This document shows positions 10,220 through 30,074 of a stretch of 32,000 nucleotides of DNA, piece after piece. The DNA lies in contig JAIZWK010000001.1 of assembly GCA_021498095.1 (NCBI GenBank), positions 4,329,486-4,361,485 on the forward strand, read 5' to 3'. The notes beneath the pieces are model-generated. The model saw nothing but the letters and a program-made list of their open reading frames with translations. It searched no databases and was not told the DNA's origin. The DNA is from Candidatus Harpocratesius repetitus (GTDB taxonomy: Archaea > Asgardarchaeota > Lokiarchaeia > Sigyniarchaeales > Promethearchaeaceae). Numbering within the stretch: the first letter of the stretch is position 1; the number at the start of each line of letters is the position of its first letter. The position numbers were made by a program, and so were the translations under genes.

Positions 10220-10717
10220 TTAACTTTCTTCTAACTGTGCAGTTAATTTTAAAACAGCTTTAGCTTCTTTCATCTTTTCTACTGCTAATGCTGACGCACG
10301 TTCAACAGAAATTTCAAGATTTTTTGTAACTTTTCCCTTTCCAAGTAATTTATTGTAATTTAAAGCGCCTAAATCAATGATATACTTACCACCTTTTTGT
10401 TCGATCTTTCCAGCTTCAAGCCAAGTAGGAAGTTTTTCTTCAACATCCTTTAAATTTATTGCTCGAGTCTGATTTAATCGTTGAACTTGAGGAGGTTGTT
10501 TGAATCCTTTCTTTCCAATTTTCCATTTTTCACCATCTGGACCTGGAAAACCAAGTTTTTTCATTTTTAGGTATAAACTCCATTTGTGCTTGAATTTTCC
10601 TGTGGTTAATCCAGTTCCACCACGTTGACCTTTAGCTCGATGAGCACCAATTGTACCGTAGCCTCGAGTTCTATTACCTTGCTGTTTCCGGCTTTTTTTT
10701 TCGAATTTTACTGGCAT
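10220..10717 (-). CDS. rpl15: 50S ribosomal protein uL15
   Basis: GNRTRGYG, HRAKGQRGGTG, GKKGF, KLLGKG; ATG at 10717 with AGGTGA SD. Confidence 0.95.
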   Translation of the reverse strand: MPVKFEKKSRKQQGNRTRGYGTIGAHRAKGQRGGTGLTTGKFKHKWSLYLKMKKLGFPGPDGEKWKIGKKGFKQPPQVQRLNQTRAINLKDVEEKLPTWLEAGKIEQKGGKYIIDLGALNYNKLLGKGKVTKNLEISVERASALAVEKMKEAKAVLKLTAQLEES

Positions 10718-10745
10718 TGTTTTTTTCACCTTTTTCCAGAAATGC

Positions 10746-11279
10746 TTAGATCATTTTTCGTAAATAAATATTGATCTTATCTCCTACTTTACCCAAGGAT
10801 CCACCGGCACCAATAGGTTTCTTGATCGAACCAGGATAACCTCCAATTGGTGGATGAAGTCGAAAGACGGGCTTTAATCCTTTAATTTCTTTTATTGCAA
10901 TTTTTCCTTTATGAATTGCATTGGCGAGATCAGGGATGGATTTATACACGGTTTCAGTTCGAACAAAATGATCAGTTAAAGGTTTATTACCTTCGAGTAG
11001 AGCGCGTTTTTCGAGTAATCTTTTTATATTATCAGCGGATACTGGTCCATAGGCAACATAATCCTTTACTTTTTGAATCATTCCTCGAACAGAAGGAGTA
11101 GTTTTAACTAATACTGCACTATTTACACGGTAAAGATTCAATAAATGTAATGTATGCAAGATTTTTCGATTCATCCCATGAGCACCACGAATCCTTATTA
11201 TACAATAGATTTCTTCTTCGGGGATTTTCGCTTTTTTTGTAGATGTTGATTTAGCGGTAGTTTTGACTTTACTTGACAT
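10746..11279 (-). CDS. rpl30: 50S ribosomal protein uL30 (long archaeal form)
   Basis: IIRIRG, TLHLLNL, GMIQKVKDYVAYG, PVFRLHPPIGG. Confidence 0.96.
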   Translation of the reverse strand: MSSKVKTTAKSTSTKKAKIPEEEIYCIIRIRGAHGMNRKILHTLHLLNLYRVNSAVLVKTTPSVRGMIQKVKDYVAYGPVSADNIKRLLEKRALLEGNKPLTDHFVRTETVYKSIPDLANAIHKGKIAIKEIKGLKPVFRLHPPIGGYPGSIKKPIGAGGSLGKVGDKINIYLRKMI

Positions 11280-11306
11280 AATCATCACCATTATTTAGAG
11301 GCTTAT

Positions 11307-12005
11307 TTAAGCCCCCCAATCTTTAGCTGTCATTACTTTATACATATTTTCCAAAGCATTAAAGACAGCTTTTGCCATATTTGTTCTGGATTTTGTATTT
11401 CCTTTTGTTACAGTCCATACATCTGTAATTCCAGCCAATCGGAGCACCAGTTTTGCAGTATCAGAACAAGCTAAACCAGTTCCTTTCGGTGCAGGTTTTA
11501 ATGTGACTCGAACACTTCCCATTTTACCAGATGTCTCAAAAGGAATGGAGTGATTTCCACCACAATTACATTCCCAACTTCCACATCCCCGTTTCACAGG
11601 AATCATGCTCAATTTTGCTTTAGCGATTGCTTTTCGGATTCCAGGACCTACTTCTTTGTTTTTTGAAGAATATAACCCAACAAATCCATCTTCATTACCG
11701 ACTACTACAGAACATTTAAATCGTGATTGTTCACCTGCATCGGTTTGCTTTTGTACCATTTTTATGTCAATTACTTCTTCTTTTAAATTGGGTATTAAGA
11801 AATCTAAGATTTCTTTTTCTTTGATGACATAATTATTACGAAGAATTTCTTCAATTGAAGTAATCTGCCCCGCTTTTACCATTTTCCCTAAGTGAGTTAA
11901 TGGTTCCCAATCATCCAATGGATTTCTCCGCTGCATTGTGCGCTTACTTCGCCTGGCACCTCGTCGGGGGGATCTATTTCGTTTACGTGATTCATTTTCT
12001 GACAT
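11307..12005 (-). CDS. rps5: 30S ribosomal protein uS5
   Basis: WEPLTHLGKMVK, VQKQTDAGEQSRF, RGCGSWEC, PAPKGTGL. Confidence 0.97.
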   Translation of the reverse strand: MSENESRKRNRSPRRGARRSKRTMQRRNPLDDWEPLTHLGKMVKAGQITSIEEILRNNYVIKEKEILDFLIPNLKEEVIDIKMVQKQTDAGEQSRFKCSVVVGNEDGFVGLYSSKNKEVGPGIRKAIAKAKLSMIPVKRGCGSWECNCGGNHSIPFETSGKMGSVRVTLKPAPKGTGLACSDTAKLVLRLAGITDVWTVTKGNTKSRTNMAKAVFNALENMYKVMTAKDWGA

Positions 12006-12009
12006 TTAA

Positions 12010-12600
12010 TTACACCTTACTCTCTATTTCTTTCAAAATTTTCTCAAAATCCGAATCAATTTTGGTAGGATCACCCTTTTTCTTTAAAACTGCAGAAAAT
12101 TTCTTTTTATATAAGTTTGAATTTTCTTTTTTCAACTGTTTTGCATATTCTGCAATATGAACCCCCTTGATTCGTTCTTCGATTCCATTGAAAAACCAAC
12201 TTTCTTCAACAGGAACTTCAATTCCTGCATCTAAAAAGCCTTTAACTGCTGCTTTAACCCGATTATCATGCACCAATATTCCAACATCAACTATTGCGTC
12301 AGAAATCCCTATTTTCTTTGCACGTAATCCACATAAATACCCAGCTAAATATGCTGACGGTAAATTACCAAGATTTTGTTTCCAATTAAAATCTTTTACA
12401 AGCTGTTGTGTGTGCACATGAGTTAAGATTTTATCTCCTTCAATTTTTGATTCAACCACTTGAACTATTGTATGCTTATTTGAACAACGAACTACTAAGC
12501 GATTACGACGTGATTGAATTAATTTTAATCTGCGATGATAATTAGTTTTCCCTTCTCGTCTTCGACGGAATGGAACTCGATATTTTGGTCCTTTAGCCAT
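12010..12600 (-). CDS. rpl18: 50S ribosomal protein uL18
   Basis: MAKGPKYRVPFRRRREGKTNYHRRLKL, NLPSAYLAG; start reassigned to ATG 12600. Confidence 0.97.
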   Translation of the reverse strand: MAKGPKYRVPFRRRREGKTNYHRRLKLIQSRRNRLVVRCSNKHTIVQVVESKIEGDKILTHVHTQQLVKDFNWKQNLGNLPSAYLAGYLCGLRAKKIGISDAIVDVGILVHDNRVKAAVKGFLDAGIEVPVEESWFFNGIEERIKGVHIAEYAKQLKKENSNLYKKKFSAVLKKKGDPTKIDSDFEKILKEIESKV

Positions 12601-12616
12601 TTCATTCACCTTCTCT

Positions 12617-13066
12617 CTAACTTCTCCACATCTTATGTTCATTAATATATCGATGCAAAGTGGCAACAGAATTAAATGTTCCACCTTTTGCTTTCAAATA
12701 AAGCTCTCGATATGTTGATACTTCTATTTGTTCAGTATCTCGTAATTTTTTAAGTTCACGACGTAAAGGTCTAATACGGTTTATCCAATTACGTTTACTG
12801 GGAGAACGAGCTGTTTTATTCCCTTTTCGACTTCCAATTCCGCGAGCACGCCCTTTTTGTTTCTTTAATTTCTTTTCTTTAGCTCGAAATCTTGAAACTC
12901 CAATTTTGGGGCGTTTAATAATTATTTTATTTTTAATTAAATTTTTAATATCTTCACGGGTTATGGCCATCAAGACATCTTCAATATATTCAGGATGGAT
13001 ATATACTCGATGGATTCCACATTTGAGAATGTCGGCAGCTAATCGTTTCTGAGCATTAATATTCAT
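12617..13066 (-). CDS. rpl19e: 50S ribosomal protein eL19
   Basis: QKRLAADILKCG, AITREDI, GSRKG, YRELYLKAKGG. Confidence 0.97.
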   Translation of the reverse strand: MNINAQKRLAADILKCGIHRVYIHPEYIEDVLMAITREDIKNLIKNKIIIKRPKIGVSRFRAKEKKLKKQKGRARGIGSRKGNKTARSPSKRNWINRIRPLRRELKKLRDTEQIEVSTYRELYLKAKGGTFNSVATLHRYINEHKMWRS

Positions 13067-13083
13067 ATTTTTCACCTATTTTT

Positions 13084-13581
13084 CTATTCTTCTTCATCCT
13101 CTGTTTGATCTTCTTCAGAATCTTCTTCATCGAGATCTTCATTTTCTTCTAATTCTTCCTCATCAATACCCTCAATTTCCATTAGTTCTTCCTTGGAAAT
13201 ACCTAAATTTAAAACACGAAATCCTTTCTCTTGAGCATATTCAATGAGAGCAATTCGCTTGCGTGCACCTAAACGCGAATTAATCCGAACAGCATGAATT
13301 TTTGGATCTAATTCATCAATATCTTTAGTATGAATGACATTTATATCTTTAAATCCTGATGGATGAAGTCCACGAATTGCCTTAGGATTTCGATAACCAG
13401 GCTCGGGGGATTTCACACCAGTTTTCGTTTTTCGACGTGTTTTATTATCAATCCCACGTTGTTTGCGCCATCCAGATTTTGATAATTTTTTATATCGCCA
13501 AGATTCATAACGTCGGAAACTCGGGCGCTTTTTGTTTTGTATTCTTCGAATTCGCATTAAGCGTGATTTATCTTCTACCAT
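13084..13581 (-). CDS. rpl32e: 50S ribosomal protein eL32 with acidic tail
   Basis: WRKQRGIDNK, GYRNPKAIRGLHPSG, RKRIAL. Confidence 0.96.
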   Translation of the reverse strand: MVEDKSRLMRIRRIQNKKRPSFRRYESWRYKKLSKSGWRKQRGIDNKTRRKTKTGVKSPEPGYRNPKAIRGLHPSGFKDINVIHTKDIDELDPKIHAVRINSRLGARKRIALIEYAQEKGFRVLNLGISKEELMEIEGIDEEELEENEDLDEEDSEEDQTEDEEE

Positions 13582-13595
13582 GATGATTCACTCCT

Positions 13596-14171
13596 TTATC
13601 GAAGTTCCCATAAAACTTCTTCACCAACTAATTTTTTATAGACATAAACACCGTCTTGAAAAACCCGCTTATCTTTTTCTCGAATTTTACACAATTTCTG
13701 AATGTTAGCGCAAGTTTGACCGACGTGTTCTTTACTCACACCAGAAACAATGACTTCTTCTTTATTGGCTTTTATTTTTACATCGCCAATTTTTTTGGTT
13801 ACTCGAGGTGCTCGTTCACCAATAAAATTTCGGATTAAAATTTCATCAGATTTACCTTTTGGAGGTTCGACTGTAATTGGAAAATGACTATATACAATTT
13901 TCATTCTATACTCATATCCCATTTGAACACCTTTAATCATGTTTCCGATTATATTTTTGATGGTATACATCTTTGCAATATCATTTTTACGAGGAAAATC
14001 TACATGAAGGTAAATAATATTTCCAATTAATTTTAGATCAATTTTCTTTGCATGAGAAAAATCTTTTATAATTTTTCCTTTCTTACCTTCTAATGTCAAA
14101 ATTTTATCTTTCAAACTTACTGAGATATCATCAGGAATTTTGACTTCTTCATCAACTGCTACATATTTCAT
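13596..14171 (-). CDS. rpl6: 50S ribosomal protein uL6
   Basis: IVYSHFPI, NFIGER, DKRVFQDGVY. Confidence 0.97.
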   Translation of the reverse strand: MKYVAVDEEVKIPDDISVSLKDKILTLEGKKGKIIKDFSHAKKIDLKLIGNIIYLHVDFPRKNDIAKMYTIKNIIGNMIKGVQMGYEYRMKIVYSHFPITVEPPKGKSDEILIRNFIGERAPRVTKKIGDVKIKANKEEVIVSGVSKEHVGQTCANIQKLCKIREKDKRVFQDGVYVYKKLVGEEVLWELR

Positions 14172-14191
14172 TTGACATCATCCTATAAGTA

Positions 14192-14581
14192 TTAATATAC
14201 ATATGCAATAAGCCTTCCACCGATATGTTTTTCTTTAGCTTCTTGATGAGACATCACTCCTTGGTTAGTGCTTATTAAAAGCATTCCAAAGTTTATTGCA
14301 GGTAAATATTGTTTCTCTGCACTTTCGATGTTTCGAGCTTTTATCGGTTTTCGGGGTTTAATTACACCAATTTTATTAATGCGTCCGAGTAATTCAACTT
14401 TAAATTTTCCTTCTCGACCATCATTAATTGATTCATATTCTGCAATATATCCATTCGCTTGTAAAATCCGAAGAACTGTACCAATCATTTTTGAGCGTGG
14501 TCGTATAACTACGGTACTTTTACAAACTGATTCGGCATTTTTAATAATACTACAAGCGTCAGCTAAAGGATCTAATAACAT
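14192..14581 (-). CDS. rps8: 30S ribosomal protein uS8
   Basis: [39 protein letters not shown]. Confidence 0.97.
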
Positions 14582-14603
14582 TTTTTGTGTTCACCTCATA
14601 CCT

Positions 14604-14768
14604 CTAAAAATATTTTTTAAATCCCATCTTTGGAGCAACTTCTCGGAAACATCTTCGACATATATCCAATCCATATCTTCGTATTAATCCTCGATGTGTA
14701 CCGCATCTTCGGCATTCCCGGGCTCCTTTTCCTTTTTTCGTTAATGAAAATGTTCGTTTTTCTGACAT
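14604..14768 (-). CDS. rps14: 30S ribosomal protein uS14 (Zn-binding, 54 aa)
   Basis: Below the ORF-track length cut-off; by hand [54 protein letters not shown], with CxxC...CxxC, in its canonical position. Confidence 0.97.
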
Positions 14769-14784
14769 TTTTTACACCTATCAC

Positions 14785-15354
14785 CTAATAAAATCGTTGC
14801 TCCATAACATCAACAATTTCTACTTTGAGAAATTTCTGCATGAAATACATTGCTTCATCTTTTGAAACGTAATGATGTTCACCAACTTTTCGGCGATCTT
14901 TTTTACGATATTTTATGCGATGTCCCGGACGCTCAATTTTACATGAAACATTGAAACCAAAGATTCCCAAATCAGGATCATATTTGATTCCAGGGACTTT
15001 AATATGTTCATCTACACCAAAGCTAAAGTTTCCTTTATGATCAAATGCTTTTCTTAATATTCGATTATCATAAATAATCAACACTTTCTTCAAGAATTCT
15101 TCAGCTTCTTTTTTACGAAGAGTAACACGAGCACCAATCGCTTGGTTTTTTCGAATTGCCCATTCTTTTACATTTTTTTTAGCTTTTGTAGTAGATGGTT
15201 TTTTATCTGTTAATTCAAATAATACTCGACGAGCTTTCTTAAGTTCTTGGGCTCCAGAACTTCCTATACCAATATTAACCACAACTTTACTAATAAAGGG
15301 TTTTTGCATAGGATGCTTCCATCTTTGTTCAAATTCTTTATAATTCTGTACCAT
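14785..15354 (-). CDS. rpl5: 50S ribosomal protein uL5
   Basis: KVVVNIGIG, IGARVTLR, GNFSFGVDEHI, YDPDLGIFG; ATG at 15354. Confidence 0.97.
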   Translation of the reverse strand: MVQNYKEFEQRWKHPMQKPFISKVVVNIGIGSSGAQELKKARRVLFELTDKKPSTTKAKKNVKEWAIRKNQAIGARVTLRKKEAEEFLKKVLIIYDNRILRKAFDHKGNFSFGVDEHIKVPGIKYDPDLGIFGFNVSCKIERPGHRIKYRKKDRRKVGEHHYVSKDEAMYFMQKFLKVEIVDVMEQRFY

Positions 15355-15361
15355 TTGATTC

Positions 15362-16123
15362 TCATACCTCCAATGGTAAATCGATAGCAGGCTTATCATT
15401 TCCAATTATAAAAACATAGTCATAAGATGTACTTAATTCACCATGCTCAGTAGAAATAATAGCCAATGAAGCATTTACTCCGAAACGTTTTATTAATTCT
15501 TTAACCTGTCCAGAAACACCGATGTTCTTCCCTTGATAGATCATAGCTTGATTTCCTTCTTCAAGTGGAAAATAATCAAGAATCTTTTGATCTGGAAGAG
15601 ATATTTTCAGTGTTCCACCCGTCTTGTAGGGGATAGATGGCTTTTCTTTCGGGTTATCGATTAAAATACGAATATTTCGACCGTCATGAAGGTTTAATTG
15701 TAAATGTCCACCACGTAAAGTTGTTATTTTTAAGATTTTACATAATTTGAATTTAGCTTCTTCTTTTGTAATTTCGCTTAATATCAACCCGTGATTTCGT
15801 GACGGCAATACTCGATAAGCCTTGTTAATTTCATGCAATTCGACTACATCCATTAACCCAACAGGAAATCTAATATCATTTTGGGGTTTCCCATCGATAA
15901 ATACTTGACCTTTATTTAAAATGAATTTTGTTTCTTTTATATTATTACTAACTTTTAGAAGATCGCGAAATATATGACCTAAAGGCAAGCTAAAATTGAA
16001 GGGATGTGGTCCAGGTCGAGCTTTTAAGAAAAATTTCCCCGCTTTACGATTTTTACGTTGAATTTGTAAATAACCCGGAGAAGCTAATCTTTTTAAGTAT
16101 CGTTTATTTCCTTTACTACCCAT
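15362..16123 (-). CDS. rps4e: 30S ribosomal protein eS4
   Basis: LKRLASP, PGPHP, FPVGLMDV, QLNLHDGRN. Confidence 0.97.
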   Translation of the reverse strand: MGSKGNKRYLKRLASPGYLQIQRKNRKAGKFFLKARPGPHPFNFSLPLGHIFRDLLKVSNNIKETKFILNKGQVFIDGKPQNDIRFPVGLMDVVELHEINKAYRVLPSRNHGLILSEITKEEAKFKLCKILKITTLRGGHLQLNLHDGRNIRILIDNPKEKPSIPYKTGGTLKISLPDQKILDYFPLEEGNQAMIYQGKNIGVSGQVKELIKRFGVNASLAIISTEHGELSTSYDYVFIIGNDKPAIDLPLEV

Positions 16124-16126
16124 AGT

Positions 16127-16558
16127 TTATTTTCCTCCTTTACTGGATTTTCCTTTTTTTGGAGATGTTGAGGAGACTATCTCGAGTTTTTCTTTTCGAT
16201 CAATCATTTTTTCGCGCCATGGATCCATTTTTTTCTCTCCAAATTTAGTTAAAACTATTTTTGAAATGGGTACAGGAACGAAATAATTGGAACTATCCCG
16301 TTTTTGAAGTGTTGCTTCTTCGATGGTAACTTTACGGGATTTCTTTAATATATCTAAAACTTTTCCTTCAATACCTTCAAATTGACCTGAAATAATCCGA
16401 ACAGAATCATTCTTTCTTACGGGTAATCGTTTTACACCATATTCTGCTTGTAAATTTTCATCAAGCCTAACGGTAAATAATTTGCTAACTTGATGGTTTT
16501 TAATCTTACGCAGAGCATTTCTTTGTTTTGAAGGTTTTTTACTTTTTATTCTAACCAT
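16127..16558 (-). CDS. rpl24: 50S ribosomal protein uL24
   Basis: SKKPSKQR, LPVRKNDSVRIISG, GIEGKV. Confidence 0.95.
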   Translation of the reverse strand: MVRIKSKKPSKQRNALRKIKNHQVSKLFTVRLDENLQAEYGVKRLPVRKNDSVRIISGQFEGIEGKVLDILKKSRKVTIEEATLQKRDSSNYFVPVPISKIVLTKFGEKKMDPWREKMIDRKEKLEIVSSTSPKKGKSSKGGK

Positions 16559-16574
16559 TTTTTTCTACCTACAC

Positions 16575-17003
16575 TTATATGATAAGACTTGCAACATTAC
16601 TTATTCGAGGCCATAAATCTGCAGATTCGCGTGCAATTGGGCCACTGATGGAACTTCCTTTTGGATCTCCATCATCGGTAACTAAAACAGCTGCATTATC
16701 TTCAAATTGAATTCTTGTACCATCAATTCTATGAATAATTTGTTTTTGACGAACAATCACTGCTTTCATAACTTTTTTACGTAAATCAGGATTTCCTTTT
16801 TTGATACTTACAACTACCATATCTCCAACACAAGCGTTAGGATATCTGTTTAAGCGAGTTTTTCTTCCAATAACTGCAATAACTTTTCCAAGCTTAGCAC
16901 CGCTGTTATCGGTAATTTTAACTATGGTTTCAGTGGAAATACCACGTGTGATTTTAGTCCTAAAAACTGATGATGTTTTTGGTCCAGATCTTCGTCCACC
17001 CAT
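16575..17003 (-). CDS. rpl14: 50S ribosomal protein uL14
   Basis: DNSGAK, VGDMVVVSIKKG, AVIVRQK, FEDNAAVL. Confidence 0.97.
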   Translation of the reverse strand: MGGRRSGPKTSSVFRTKITRGISTETIVKITDNSGAKLGKVIAVIGRKTRLNRYPNACVGDMVVVSIKKGNPDLRKKVMKAVIVRQKQIIHRIDGTRIQFEDNAAVLVTDDGDPKGSSISGPIARESADLWPRISNVASLII

Positions 17004-17006
17004 TTA

Positions 17007-17363
17007 TTATTCCTCCTTCGTTATTCGTTCAATAACAACAAAATCCACCGTTTTTGCTAATTTCCGGCATTGTGCAATTCTCACCATATCTCCTTCTTGA
17101 ACGTCAATACAGGGTGGAAGATGAGCTGCAATCTTGGATCGTCGTCGTTCATACCGCTGATATTTTGGTACATAGTAATTATAATCTCTTTGTATTACAA
17201 TGGTACCGTGCATTTTGGTAGATACCACAACACCAGATAAAATCCTCCCACGAAGACTTAATTCACCGTGAAAGGGGCAATTGGGATCTTCACATATTCG
17301 ATTAGGTTCCTTTACATCGGGAATACCTATATTATGTGTTTCAGTCAATCTCATACTCTCCAT
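17007..17363 (-). CDS. rps17: 30S ribosomal protein uS17
   Basis: CEDPNCPFHG, LRGRILSGVV, PKYQRYERRRSKI, CRKLAKT. Confidence 0.97.
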   Translation of the reverse strand: MESMRLTETHNIGIPDVKEPNRICEDPNCPFHGELSLRGRILSGVVVSTKMHGTIVIQRDYNYYVPKYQRYERRRSKIAAHLPPCIDVQEGDMVRIAQCRKLAKTVDFVVIERITKEE

Positions 17364-17367
17364 TCTT

Positions 17368-17691
17368 TTAATGATATTTTTTATGTATTTTTTTTCGTAT
17401 TAGTTTAATGCGTTGTTCTGGTTTTCCAGCAATTTTGATTCCATCAAATTCCAATAAAATTTTAGAACCATCATCTTGAGGGAGCCAGACTCTAAATATA
17501 TATTCTTTTTTAACAAAAATTTTGGTGGATTGATGCTGTTGCATAATAATTGTATTTTTTGTTTCATCAATACACTTTCCAATGAATTTGAATTCTTTCC
17601 AAGTTGGATTTGTTTTGTGTTTTGCATCTAATTCCACACCAATTAAATCTAAATAAATAAACCATTCAGGATTATTTCTCATGTTTTTCAT
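17368..17691 (-). CDS. rnp1: Ribonuclease P protein component Rpp29/POP4
   Basis: LIGVELD, GKCIDETKNT, DGIKIAGKPEQRIK, canonical position between uL29 and uS17; start may be 17682. Confidence 0.85.
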   Translation of the reverse strand: MKNMRNNPEWFIYLDLIGVELDAKHKTNPTWKEFKFIGKCIDETKNTIIMQQHQSTKIFVKKEYIFRVWLPQDDGSKILLEFDGIKIAGKPEQRIKLIRKKIHKKYH

Positions 17692-17872
17692 TGATTACTG
17701 TTAAAATTCTGGCAATAGATTTCTTTAATTCACGAATCTTCGATGGATCTTGCATAGTTCCACCCATTGCATTTGAACTTCGTACTTTAAACAATTCTTT
17801 CTGTAGATCTTCAAGTTTTTTTTCTCGTTCGATGGAACTCATATTCCGAATATCTTTGATTTTTACTTTCAT
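17672..17872 (-). CDS. rpl29: 50S ribosomal protein uL29
   Basis: KIRELKKSIARILTVINE. Confidence 0.95.
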   Translation of the reverse strand: MKVKIKDIRNMSSIEREKKLEDLQKELFKVRSSNAMGGTMQDPSKIRELKKSIARILTVINEKHEK

Positions 17873-17892
17873 TTATTTCACCATTAATTTTT

Positions 17893-18705
17893 TTATTCAT
17901 CAACATCAAGATCGTCAGATTCTTCTTCTAAGTCATTGAGTATCTCTTCTTCATCAACAACTTCTTTCTCATCTGCTGTAATAATTGAGGCTTCATCTAC
18001 ATCACTTGTGTCTTCAAAGATTTCTTCATCTTCATCTTCTGGAAGTTCATCTTGATAAAAGGGATCAACTCCTTCATCAGTTTTCTTTTCTTCAGCAGAA
18101 CGATCAAAAATACCTTCTAATATCTCAACTTCATCAGGTAATTGATAAGATTCAGGCATAATTTTAACTCGAATTCCTAATACTCCAGATTTTAAAGTAA
18201 GATGACAGACACCTCGAGATACACCTTCATCTGCAGGGGTTCCACATTTAGAAATAACACCAGCTCGAAATACTTGTGAACGTGCTCGTTGAGAAGTAAC
18301 CTTTCCACTTATATGAACTTCAACTCCTCTTGCACCTGCGCGCATAATTCGACGAATAATGCTGTAGGTCGCTCGTCGGTAGTTTTGTCCTTTTTGGATA
18401 GCATATGCAATACGTTCCGCTTGAATTTGAGCATTTAATTCAGGATTTTCAACAGTTTCAACATCAATAGTTGGTACATTAATATTGAACTTTTCTTTAA
18501 CTGCATCAGTTAATTCTTTCACCTTTGCACCTCTTCGTCCAATAACAATTCCTGGTCGAGAAGTTTTAATGGTGATTCGTGTTCCCATAGGTGTTTTTTG
18601 AAGAGAGCATCCCGCGTATCCAGAATTATCAAGTTCAGAAGCAAGATATTCTTCAATTAAGGTATGTTGAAGCCCTCTATTAACAAAATGTTTTTTGACT
18701 GGCAT
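17893..18705 (-). CDS. rps3: 30S ribosomal protein uS3 with long acidic tail
   Basis: RPGIVIGRRG KH motif, PELNA, GARGVEVHISGK, GVLGIRVKI; ATG at 18705. Confidence 0.97.
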   Translation of the reverse strand: MPVKKHFVNRGLQHTLIEEYLASELDNSGYAGCSLQKTPMGTRITIKTSRPGIVIGRRGAKVKELTDAVKEKFNINVPTIDVETVENPELNAQIQAERIAYAIQKGQNYRRATYSIIRRIMRAGARGVEVHISGKVTSQRARSQVFRAGVISKCGTPADEGVSRGVCHLTLKSGVLGIRVKIMPESYQLPDEVEILEGIFDRSAEEKKTDEGVDPFYQDELPEDEDEEIFEDTSDVDEASIITADEKEVVDEEEILNDLEEESDDLDVDE

Positions 18706-18715
18706 AAGATTCACT

Positions 18716-19183
18716 TTATATTTCGGTTAAGACAATTTCTATGTGAGTTAAAACTCTAAAATAAGGAGTACTTCGACCGTGGGCGCGTTCAATATATTGC
18801 TTAACTTTTCTTCCCCGCATTACAGCAGAATGAGTTATTTTTAACCTTTCGGGATCTAATCCTTTATATTCTGCATTAGATTCAGCATTGATTAAAACTT
18901 CATAAACCATTCTGGCTGATTTTTCAGGAAAACGACCGGAAGGAAATTTAAAATTTTTCAAACCATGACGATGTCCTACTTTTTTATTATATCGCTTAAA
19001 AGGAACTGCTTTTTTTAACAATATGACATCTTCTAAATAGTTTTTCGCGGTTTCCAATTTCATCCCTTTTATGACGTTACAAACTTCTCGTGTATTCTTA
19101 GGAGAGACATCAAGTTCTCTACCAACCGCTGTTGCAGTCCTGTCCGGATCTAAGCCTTGAACACTCATTTTCCAATTAGGCAT
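18716..19183 (-). CDS. rpl22: 50S ribosomal protein uL22
   Basis: VSPKNTREV, AVPFKRY, GRFPEKSA, RAHGR, THIEIVL. Confidence 0.97.
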   Translation of the reverse strand: MPNWKMSVQGLDPDRTATAVGRELDVSPKNTREVCNVIKGMKLETAKNYLEDVILLKKAVPFKRYNKKVGHRHGLKNFKFPSGRFPEKSARMVYEVLINAESNAEYKGLDPERLKITHSAVMRGRKVKQYIERAHGRSTPYFRVLTHIEIVLTEI

Positions 19184-19267
19184 AAATGATTCTTTCCTTT
19201 ACAGTGTTTTTAATTATAGATTTTGACTAATAATATTAACCAAAATCGCGATTCCTAACTTACGATT

Positions 19268-19418
19268 ATGATCAAAGTGAATATGGTGCCCAAATTCTGA
19301 AAAATTGTGATTTGGGGCATACTCACGCCCGAGATTTTTCATTCCTCGGCGCCTGAATTTCGAAGCTGTGATTATTTTGATCATTAAGATCAAATGGAAT
19401 CACAACTGGTTGAGATCA
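19268..19418. ncRNA. Candidate structured RNA or palindromic element (three consecutive stem-loops), family unknown
   Basis: Local GC about 45% (19321-19380) versus about 18% (19501-19560); stems at 19277-19326, 19326-19351 and 19354-19418. Confidence 0.45.
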
Positions 19419-19656
19419 AAAAATATCGATCATTAAATAAATTTTCGATTCTACCGCTATATAGAGCATCAGAAGGCAAAATCATCACATTTTAATATAA
19501 TGATTTAAGAATTCTGTTATCAAAAATGGAAATTATAAAAAAAGAAATAATACAGAGAAAAAATAAAAGATAAAAGAATAAAAAACGAAATTAAAATGTA
19601 TTTATCAATATCATATTGCAATAAAAAAGAAATATAATTTTGAATGGTGAACAAGA

Positions 19657-20286
19657 ATGAGAAATAAAAAAGGAAGATTGAGTAAAAAAAAGAGATTCTA
19701 TACCACTTTAGTAATGTTATTCTTAATAACGACTATCCTAACTGTGAAAGCATCTGGATTAAAAGTTAATAGTGGAGATGTTTTCTGGTGGGAAACAGGT
19801 GATAGCAAATCTGTAACAGGATATATTCGATTAACATACCAAGAAGTAAGAAATGCAACTGTTTGGGTTGATTATTTGGGATATGATATAGTTGGAGAAT
19901 TAACAGCAAATATTACTAATAAATCTGCTGGGTTCTTATGGGTAGACCCGGGTATTTTTTCAGAATGGTCCCAACTCGGTTATGAAAAAATAAATATAAC
20001 TCATTTAGATATCCAATTTCAATGCATCATTAGAGAACGTATTTATGGAGAAGAGACAACTGATGAATATTATGATTTAGATTCGGGTATTTTAGTTAAA
20101 TCTGAAAGCAATTTGGGAAATTATAAAACTTTGATTTCAACTGAAGATATTAACTTAGAAACTTATATGAAAGAACACAATAAAACAATAGATTCGTTAT
20201 CATTAATTTGGTTGATTGGAGTAATTTCTTGTACAATGGTCTATCTTCTTTTAAATCTGGATTTACGGAACAAGAGAAAGAAATAA
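19657..20286 (+). CDS. Putative cell-surface protein (signal peptide, beta-rich body, C-terminal TM anchor)
   Basis: Basic n-region + hydrophobic h-region ending VKA; YYDLDSGILV motif; C-terminal hydrophobic helix followed by RNKRKK. Confidence 0.75.
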   Translation: MRNKKGRLSKKKRFYTTLVMLFLITTILTVKASGLKVNSGDVFWWETGDSKSVTGYIRLTYQEVRNATVWVDYLGYDIVGELTANITNKSAGFLWVDPGIFSEWSQLGYEKINITHLDIQFQCIIRERIYGEETTDEYYDLDSGILVKSESNLGNYKTLISTEDINLETYMKEHNKTIDSLSLIWLIGVISCTMVYLLLNLDLRNKRKK

Positions 20287-20393
20287 TTGCTATTGATTTT
20301 TTATTTTTATACCACTTTTATAACCAAAAAATTATTAATTTATCGCCTATTCATGAAGTTATACATAAATAATATCAATTTTTGTGATATCTC

Positions 20394-20807
20394 ATGTCTG
20401 AACAACGACACAAGTTCCTTTATCGGGGCAAAAATTTGGATGAATTAAGACGAATGTCGATGAAACAATTCATGGAACTTCTACCTTCACGCCAACGCCG
20501 CAGTCTAAAGCGAGGTATGCCCCGACGCCAAAAAAAATTCTTACGTAAATTAAAAAAGGCCAAAAAAGCAGCGAAAGATGGGAGAGAAGTAGTGGTTCGC
20601 ACCCATAACCGGGATATGATCATTTTTCCTGAATTTATCGGCTTAACTATTGCAGTCCATAATGGATTAGAATTTATTCCTGTAAAAATTACTCCAGAAC
20701 ACATTGGTCATTATTTAGGAGAATACTCACCTACAAATAAGAAAGTAACCCATGGAAACCCTGGAGTAGGTGCAACCAGAAGTTCTCAATTTGTACCTTT
20801 GAAATAA
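20394..20807 (+). CDS. rps19: 30S ribosomal protein uS19
   Basis: [60 protein letters not shown]. Confidence 0.98.
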
Positions 20808-29699: not shown

Positions 29700-30074
29700 C
29701 AAGGATTAAAGCGGCTGCTGAAACAAATTGAGCAGAGGAAGGTGGCACGGGTGCTGATTGCCTATAAGGATCGGCTCACAAGATTCGGGTTTCCATTTCT
29801 GGAATATGTTTGCGGGATTTACGATGTGCCGATTATCGAGGTGGAGCGGGGATTGAATACTTCTTTAGAGGAACAGCTGGTGACGGATTTGATGGCGCTG
29901 ATTGCATCGTTTTCGGGCAAATTGTATCAGTTACGGGCGCTTCAGGCGAAAGGTTATGATAGAGAGGAGAAAGAGCGGGAGAGAATTGATTCCATTATCG
30001 AGAGGTATGTTAGGAGGGATTCGGAAAGAATACTGAGCAAGTTGACAAGGAATTTAGCCACTTCATGCTGTTAA
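29700..30074 (+). mobile_element. IS607-family TnpA serine recombinase remnant (N-terminally truncated, no tnpB)
   Basis: Frame open from 29700 (stop at 29697): QGLKRLLKQIEQRKVARVLIAYKDRLTRFGF...EQLVTDLMALIASFSGKLY. No MerR-type HTH or YARVS catalytic segment upstream; GC about 45-50% versus 20% just upstream. Confidence 0.88.

Follow-up and report, generated by a model that had tools for sequence, protein, structure and literature searches.

A conserved two-hairpin RNA and proposed 5' leader of the uL22-uL15 ribosomal protein operon in one family of Asgard archaea

Introduction

In archaea, control of ribosomal protein (r-protein) mRNAs is known from the L1 site on the mRNA of the Methanococcus L1 operon, and Rfam holds the candidate motifs L4-Archaeoglobi and S15-Halobacteria/Methanomicrobia. 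To our knowledge, little is known about how r-protein synthesis is balanced against rRNA in archaea, and in Asgard archaea particularly. The RNA element described here resembles the L1 site and the L4 and S15 motifs in being archaeal, restricted to one lineage and located upstream of r-protein genes, and a role in cis is proposed for it as well. It belongs, however, to another operon and has another fold, and none of these motifs was returned by an Rfam scan of the locus at E values up to 10.

Bacterial r-protein operons are controlled by structured leaders that are bound by an r-protein encoded in the same operon (PMC3616713). Like the autogenous leaders of the S10 operon, with L4 as regulator, and of the spc operon, with S8 (PMC3616713), the present element is a structured RNA of narrow distribution, with covarying stems and with invariant nucleotides in loops and bulges, and it would likewise form part of the transcript of a large r-protein operon. 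The genes that it heads correspond by homology to the last part of the S10 operon together with the spc operon. It differs from the bacterial leaders in coming from another domain of life and in showing no similarity to them in sequence or structure when compared through Rfam. Furthermore, it lies far from the start codon, has no detectable rRNA mimicry and lacks an attenuator made of a hairpin and a U-tract.

The r-protein operons of methanogenic archaea have long 5' UTRs that are processed (PMC5499594). The putative 5' UTR at the present locus is also unusually long and also precedes an archaeal r-protein operon. The work on methanogens maps cleavage sites, whereas it describes no conserved folded core of the kind reported here (PMC5499594).

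No published description of this RNA was found in the literature, and Rfam does not contain it. It would be the first RNA to be proposed as an r-protein operon leader in Asgard archaea. The candidate is compact, is backed by covariation and stands at the head of the largest r-protein operon, and its appearance coincides with a datable rearrangement of that operon. Adding the element to RNA family databases could improve the annotation of Asgard genomes.

Genomic setting

The window, that is the whole stretch of 32,000 nt that was analysed, forms the end of a closed archaeal chromosome of 4.36 Mb with 31% GC (genome G000). Judged by the operon, its gene content would suit an Asgard archaeon of the Lokiarchaeia type. 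It holds an operon of 18 genes in the order uL22-uS3-uL29-Rpp29-uS17-uL14-uL24-eS4-uL5-(uS14)-uS8-uL6-eL32-eL19-uL18-uS5-uL30-uL15, within which uL22, uS3, Rpp29 and uL15 are supported by Pfam (Table 1). The usual place of uS19 is directly upstream of uL22. Here, uS19 is found 1.2 kb away from uL22 on the opposite strand, beyond an unrelated ORF of 209 aa. An initial annotation of this DNA had described three hairpins at a break of the operon between uS19 and uL22; the hairpins and the break are both present, and the identity of the two genes is backed by Pfam.

Elsewhere in the window, an ORF of 110 aa on the plus strand (29742-30074) resembles by eye the C-terminal part of an IS serine recombinase, with no match in Pfam. 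The genome carries two 16S and two 23S rRNA genes that are partly unlinked, with one 16S gene at 724 kb, one 23S gene at 803 kb and one pair at 2.30 Mb in which the 23S gene comes before the 16S gene. Three tandem 5S rRNA genes with a spacing of about 375 nt are located at G000:C1:1399892-1400758.

Table 1. Features of the uL22 upstream region and its neighbouring genes, in window coordinates
Feature	Position	Strand	Remarks
uL22...uL15 operon	10220-19183	minus	gene order from ORFs
uL22 gene	18716-19183	minus	Pfam Ribosomal_L22, E 6e-28; first gene of the uL22-uL15 operon
Spacer from core to uL22 start	19184-19276	minus	holds genus-specific hairpins, e.g. 19219-19247
Purine-rich SD-like motif AAGGAAAG	19192-19199	minus	within the spacer
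P3 (stem 1)	19277-19326	minus	9-bp lower stem, 1x3 internal loop, upper stem, variable tip
P2 (stem 2)	19327-19352	minus	GC-rich hairpin with bulged G and loop AUG-N-AAAAA
Variable 5' hairpin (stem 3 of the initial annotation)	19364-19407	minus	in the minimum-free-energy fold
BRE/TATA-like box, CGAAAA + TTTATTTAA, then (N)GATC	19433-19447	minus	putative promoter
uS19 gene	20394-20807	plus	Pfam Ribosomal_S19, E 4e-32; detached from uL22 and inverted

Folding and strand

The GC content is 39.1% over the annotated span (19268-19418) and 43.5% over 19272-19363, which covers the core, against 25% and 20% in the intergenic flanks. The rise in GC that had been pointed out is therefore real, and the earlier figure of about 45% is slightly high for the span as a whole. 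The motifs quoted at the time were all found where they had been placed, with ATGATCAAA at 19268-19276, stem 1 at 19277-19326 and GATCAAA at 19270, 19388 and 19414.

Both strands fold better than dinucleotide shuffles of the same sequence, the minus strand more so. The fold of the minus strand has an energy of -49.1 kcal/mol (z -4.54), reached by none of 200 shuffles, compared to -44.2 kcal/mol (z -2.89) for the plus strand, for which 2 of 200 shuffles were as good. Across 14 distinct aligned homologues, the minus sense gives standard pairs in 309 of 322 cells and the antisense in 280 of 322, and the 30 G-U cells of the minus-sense alignment would turn into A-C on the plus strand. Because the minus strand folds better and the G-U cells break on the other strand, the RNA is read in the direction of uL22. 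The functional strand is thus the minus strand, the sense strand of uL22, and not the plus strand on which the hairpins were originally drawn.

Read in this direction, P2 and P3 abut with no linker between them and form a conserved core of two hairpins (19277-19352). The AUG and the run of A in the P2 loop are invariant in nine genomes. Helix 1 of P2 is paired in 100% of cases, and both sides have changed in three of its six pairs. The internal loop of P3 sets a single C opposite CAC or UAC; the G-C and C-G pairs that flank it and an ACC are invariant, and both stems of P3 show compensatory changes. 

The 5' hairpin brings together TGTGATT (19368-74) with AATCACA (19398-404), and TTTGATC (19376-82) with GATCAAA (19388-94). 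Every relative has a hairpin at this position, usually built on a GAUC palindrome, but its sequence is not kept between genera. Hence, of the three stems drawn initially, stems 1 and 2 are conserved in sequence and stem 3 is a hairpin that varies with the lineage. Its 5' end is predicted to fall no more than a few nt from where transcription starts, and a role as a stabilising hairpin at the 5' end of the transcript is plausible.

On the other side of the core, the spacer is kept within a genus, while its length (40-170 nt) and sequence vary between genera. An AAGG-like motif is found 11-18 nt before the uL22 ATG in most genera. In G000 the spacer contains, between the core and the uL22 start, a 13-bp hairpin (19219-19247, minus strand) of GAUUUUGGUUAAU with AUUAGUCAAAAUC, which is kept in G002. 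An alternative hairpin, formed with the UUGAUCA that directly follows P3, overlaps this one, so that the two folds compete within the genus.

The initial annotation had also proposed that the element acts as a switch between two mutually exclusive folds, from an exact 9-nt pairing of 19268-76 with 19376-84. The pairing exists in this genome. It is absent in the closest relative, G002, where the 3' flank reads UUUGAUCAC and GUGAUCAAA is missing upstream, and a conserved switch therefore gains no support. The outermost GATCAAA, at 19414, is probably located ahead of the predicted start of transcription. Of the switch-like r-protein leader suggested before, the part that concerns a leader of the uL22-uL15 operon is the best supported reading, and the switch-like part is not retained.

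Conservation and covariation

The element is a real folded RNA, present in a single copy and kept in one archaeal family. A stretch of 201 nt has no second copy in the closed genome, the next matches being at most about 30 nt long with E values of at least 0.06, and BLAST matches were found in three relatives, each of them upstream of uL22. The conserved core was defined by aligning the uL22 upstream regions of the family. A covariance model of the full core (R1) gave exactly one match per genome in 10 of the 14 genomes of the family, belonging to genera g1, g5, g6 and g7, and no match in 137 genomes from three sister families of the order (f2-f4). Six further matches of R1 were found in metagenome contigs, with a uL22 gene after each. 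All 16 occurrences are on the strand of uL22 and 40-170 nt upstream of its ATG. Two of the relatives that carry the element have genomes of a single contig.

Two genera of the family are less clear. Genus g3 gave only marginal matches at the same place (E 0.035 and 0.098), in which the 9-bp stem and the CAC bulge are kept. In genus g4 (G005) a P3-like hairpin was tentatively recognised by eye, and a P3-only model (R2) does not detect it. In families f2 and f3, a search around uS19-uL22 gave no P3-like motif. In g3 a non-coding stretch of about 360 nt, present in a single copy, is located upstream of uL22 (L029:1100-1500 and the matching region of G009), with 74% identity between the two species. 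The P3-like stem carrying the CAC bulge is all that it has in common with the element, and it could represent a leader that has diverged or been expanded.

The secondary structure is conserved and supported by covariation, for which the initial annotation had proposed a test, along with a comparison of the region upstream of the uL22 gene in relatives. RNAalifold gave 23 pairs, 10 of them with compensatory changes. Among the 14 distinct sequences, which amount to about four independent genera and were aligned by fitting to the model, 96% of cells pair and 11 of the 23 pairs have changed on both sides. None of 500 column shuffles reached any of the five measures used, and sliding the 3' partners by 1-3 columns lowered pairing to 27-55%.

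This pattern also bears on the possibility that the region is a mobile element, a stand-alone TnpB omega RNA or a small ORF starting at the conserved loop AUG, all of which we regard as extremely improbable. The AUG of the P2 loop is indeed invariant, and a 59-aa ORF on the minus strand overlaps the region. However, where the 3' arm of P2 has changed, the untranslated 5' arm has changed with it, and the ORFs that begin at the loop AUG run from 1 to about 59 codons, with G006 reading AUG-UAA. A non-autonomous mobile element had been one of the original suggestions. It is refuted by the single copy in the closed genome and in the g3 counterpart, and by the identical position upstream of uL22 in four genera; MITEs and omega RNAs were rejected along with other mobile elements on finding one match per relative genome, always before uL22.

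Known classes of structured RNA were also considered. Rfam 15 gave no match in the window at the gathering score, and at E values up to 10 only chance matches to snoRNAs and miRNAs of at most 20 bits. The element had been said to lack any tRNA, 5S, SRP or RNase P signature. In agreement with this, ARAGORN found nothing at the locus, neither tRNA nor tmRNA, and 5S rRNA, RNase P RNA and SRP RNA are encoded elsewhere in the genome. On inspection of the alignment, there is no conserved RUGAUGA/CUGA pair at the 12-nt spacing of a C/D-box sRNA and no conserved ACA 3' of P3 as in an H/ACA sRNA, and a K-turn was rejected since the 3-nt bulge is followed by C-A and not by G-A. Bulge-helix-bulge and sarcin-ricin motifs were ruled out by inspection as well.

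Promoter and transcription unit

Genera g1, g5, g6 and g7 share the sequence of the BRE/TATA-like box, the start of which lies 68-109 nt before the core. A box of similar type is also found ahead of uS19. When G000 is aligned with its congener G002, the DNA before the box is poorly matched; similarity rises sharply at the box and stays high as far as the uL22 ATG. Transcription is predicted to start near 19411, at the foot of stem 3. Runs of 6-16 T are found upstream of the promoter box in eight of nine genomes, and a run of 4 in the ninth (G001). Between the core and uL22, none of the nine genomes has a run of five or more T, a depletion that composition shuffles do not show to be significant. 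From the promoter box, the lack of T-runs and the SD-like motif, we infer that the core and uL22 are part of one mRNA.

Most genomes also have AT-rich, TATA-like strings 25-35 nt before the uL22 ATG, where a second, proximal promoter may be located. The conserved SD-like AAGG 11-18 nt before the ATG favours a 5' UTR on the mRNA over a start at these strings.

These observations are central to the main rival of the leader reading, in which the element is an independent gene for a small non-coding RNA of about 130-150 nt, with its own promoter, that acts in trans or is released from the leader by processing. An unknown ncRNA had been among the original suggestions. We consider this rival somewhat unlikely, though still live. 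The element does have its own BRE/TATA box, its core is self-contained and lies at a variable distance (40-170 nt) from uL22 behind a spacer that is not conserved between genera, and the TATA-like strings before the ATG could serve uL22 separately; that neither rRNA mimicry nor sequestration of the SD was found points the same way. On the other hand, no oligo-T terminator follows P3 in any of the nine genomes, and an mRNA begun at the proximal strings would lose the SD-like motif. Furthermore, every occurrence of the element accompanies uL22 and is on its strand, and conservation within a genus runs unbroken from the promoter to the ATG.

The sequence GATC is frequent around the promoter, occurring five times in 196 nt (19260-19455), a density reached in just 0.14% of random stretches of that length taken from the genome. 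In eight of nine genomes, G010 being the exception, a GATC comes no more than 1-2 nt after the TATA box, and most of the nine have paired GATCs 25-45 nt downstream of the box that form the variable 5' hairpin. Such palindromes, in stem 3 and after the TATA box, would be expected if part of the signal acted at the DNA level as operator sites for a transcription factor. We find this very unlikely. The half-sites differ between genera (TTGATC against AAGATC) with complementarity kept, and P2 and P3 would be left unexplained, their G-U pairs and compensatory changes being of a kind specific to RNA. The GATC cluster as such may belong to the RNA, serve as an operator for a transcription factor or act as a decoy resembling an SD, UGAUC being complementary to the 3' end of the 16S rRNA.

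Proposed function

We propose, with moderate confidence, that the element is a cis-acting structured 5' leader of the uL22-uL15 operon, most likely serving autogenous control by an r-protein. Transcription of the minus strand would start near 19411 from the BRE/TATA-like box, and the transcript would comprise the variable terminal hairpin, the core of P2 and P3 and, about 95 nt further on and with no terminator in between, uL22. The invariant nucleotides among covarying stems look like a site of protein recognition. Candidate docking points are the AUG-N-AAAAA loop and bulged G of P2, the GC-rich junction of P2 and P3, and the internal loop of P3 with its flanking pairs. An r-protein encoded in the operon and present in excess over rRNA might then bind the core and lower expression in an autogenous feedback.

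How binding would act on expression can be narrowed down to some extent. The core lies 40-170 nt from the start codon with no conserved pairing to it, and an effect on mRNA stability, processing or ribosome loading is therefore likelier than occlusion of the start site. In folds of eight full leaders, we found no consistent sequestration of the SD or the AUG. By analogy with the long processed 5' UTRs of methanogens (PMC5499594), control by cleavage or by stability is plausible here.

A search of the 16S, 23S and 5S rRNA of this organism with R1 and R2 gave no match, though rRNA sites formed by long-range contacts could escape such a comparison. Autogenous operators usually mimic the rRNA site of the protein that regulates them. 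A usual hallmark of such an operator is therefore missing, which counts against the autogenous reading, and the variable spacer, unconserved between genera, would also fit an autonomous RNA module. Two local resemblances to 16S rRNA were considered and rejected. A 10-mer shared with the 3' strand of helix 34, AGUAUGCCCC, is at the level that shuffling predicts by chance (P = 0.24), and the register in which its partner strand pairs is another one. The uS8 site of h21, in which a UA bulge adjoins a G-C pair, is by eye only loosely similar to the core and not equivalent.

The lack of an rRNA mimic would also suit a leader that senses something other than an r-protein, such as a small molecule (as a riboswitch), an ion, temperature or a non-ribosomal RNA-binding protein. 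In favour of this, the nucleotides of the loop and the internal loop are highly conserved beside covarying stems, as in RNAs that bind ligands. We nevertheless judge it quite unlikely. Metabolite riboswitches are usually widespread and located ahead of several genes of a pathway, whereas the present element is confined to one family and tied to one operon. It has no conserved expression platform either, and no Rfam riboswitch matches it even at E values up to 10. An autogenous leader of the uL22-uL15 operon thus remains the reading that we prefer.

Origin of the element

The distribution of the element can be set against the position of uS19. In families f2 and f3, uS19 is directly upstream of uL22 and ends 26-69 nt (at most about 70 nt) before it in the loci measured. 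In g1, g5 and g3, uS19 is absent from the 1.5 kb upstream of uL22, and in g6, g7 and g4 it is still upstream on the same strand at a distance of 420-1100 nt. Since the element is found where uS19 is gone or 420-1100 nt off, its occurrence coincides with uL22 heading its own transcription unit.

This leads us to a tentative scenario, which we hold to be somewhat less probable than not. In it, uL22 lost uS19 and gained a promoter in the ancestor of a single Asgard family of the Lokiarchaeia type, and an RNA operator was born with this change. An r-protein or another factor would through this operator set the output of the 18-gene uL22-uL15 operon, with neither occlusion of the start site nor mimicry of rRNA. 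If true, Asgard archaea would have in this element their first known r-protein feedback RNA, and the de novo birth of such a regulator would be datable.

The arrangement in g6, g7 and g4 (loci L025-L028 and L031) looks like intermediate stages of the operon split. On the uS19 side of the locus in G000 (window 19657-20807), the ORF of 209 aa has no Pfam match, and it adjoins the element in G001 as well.
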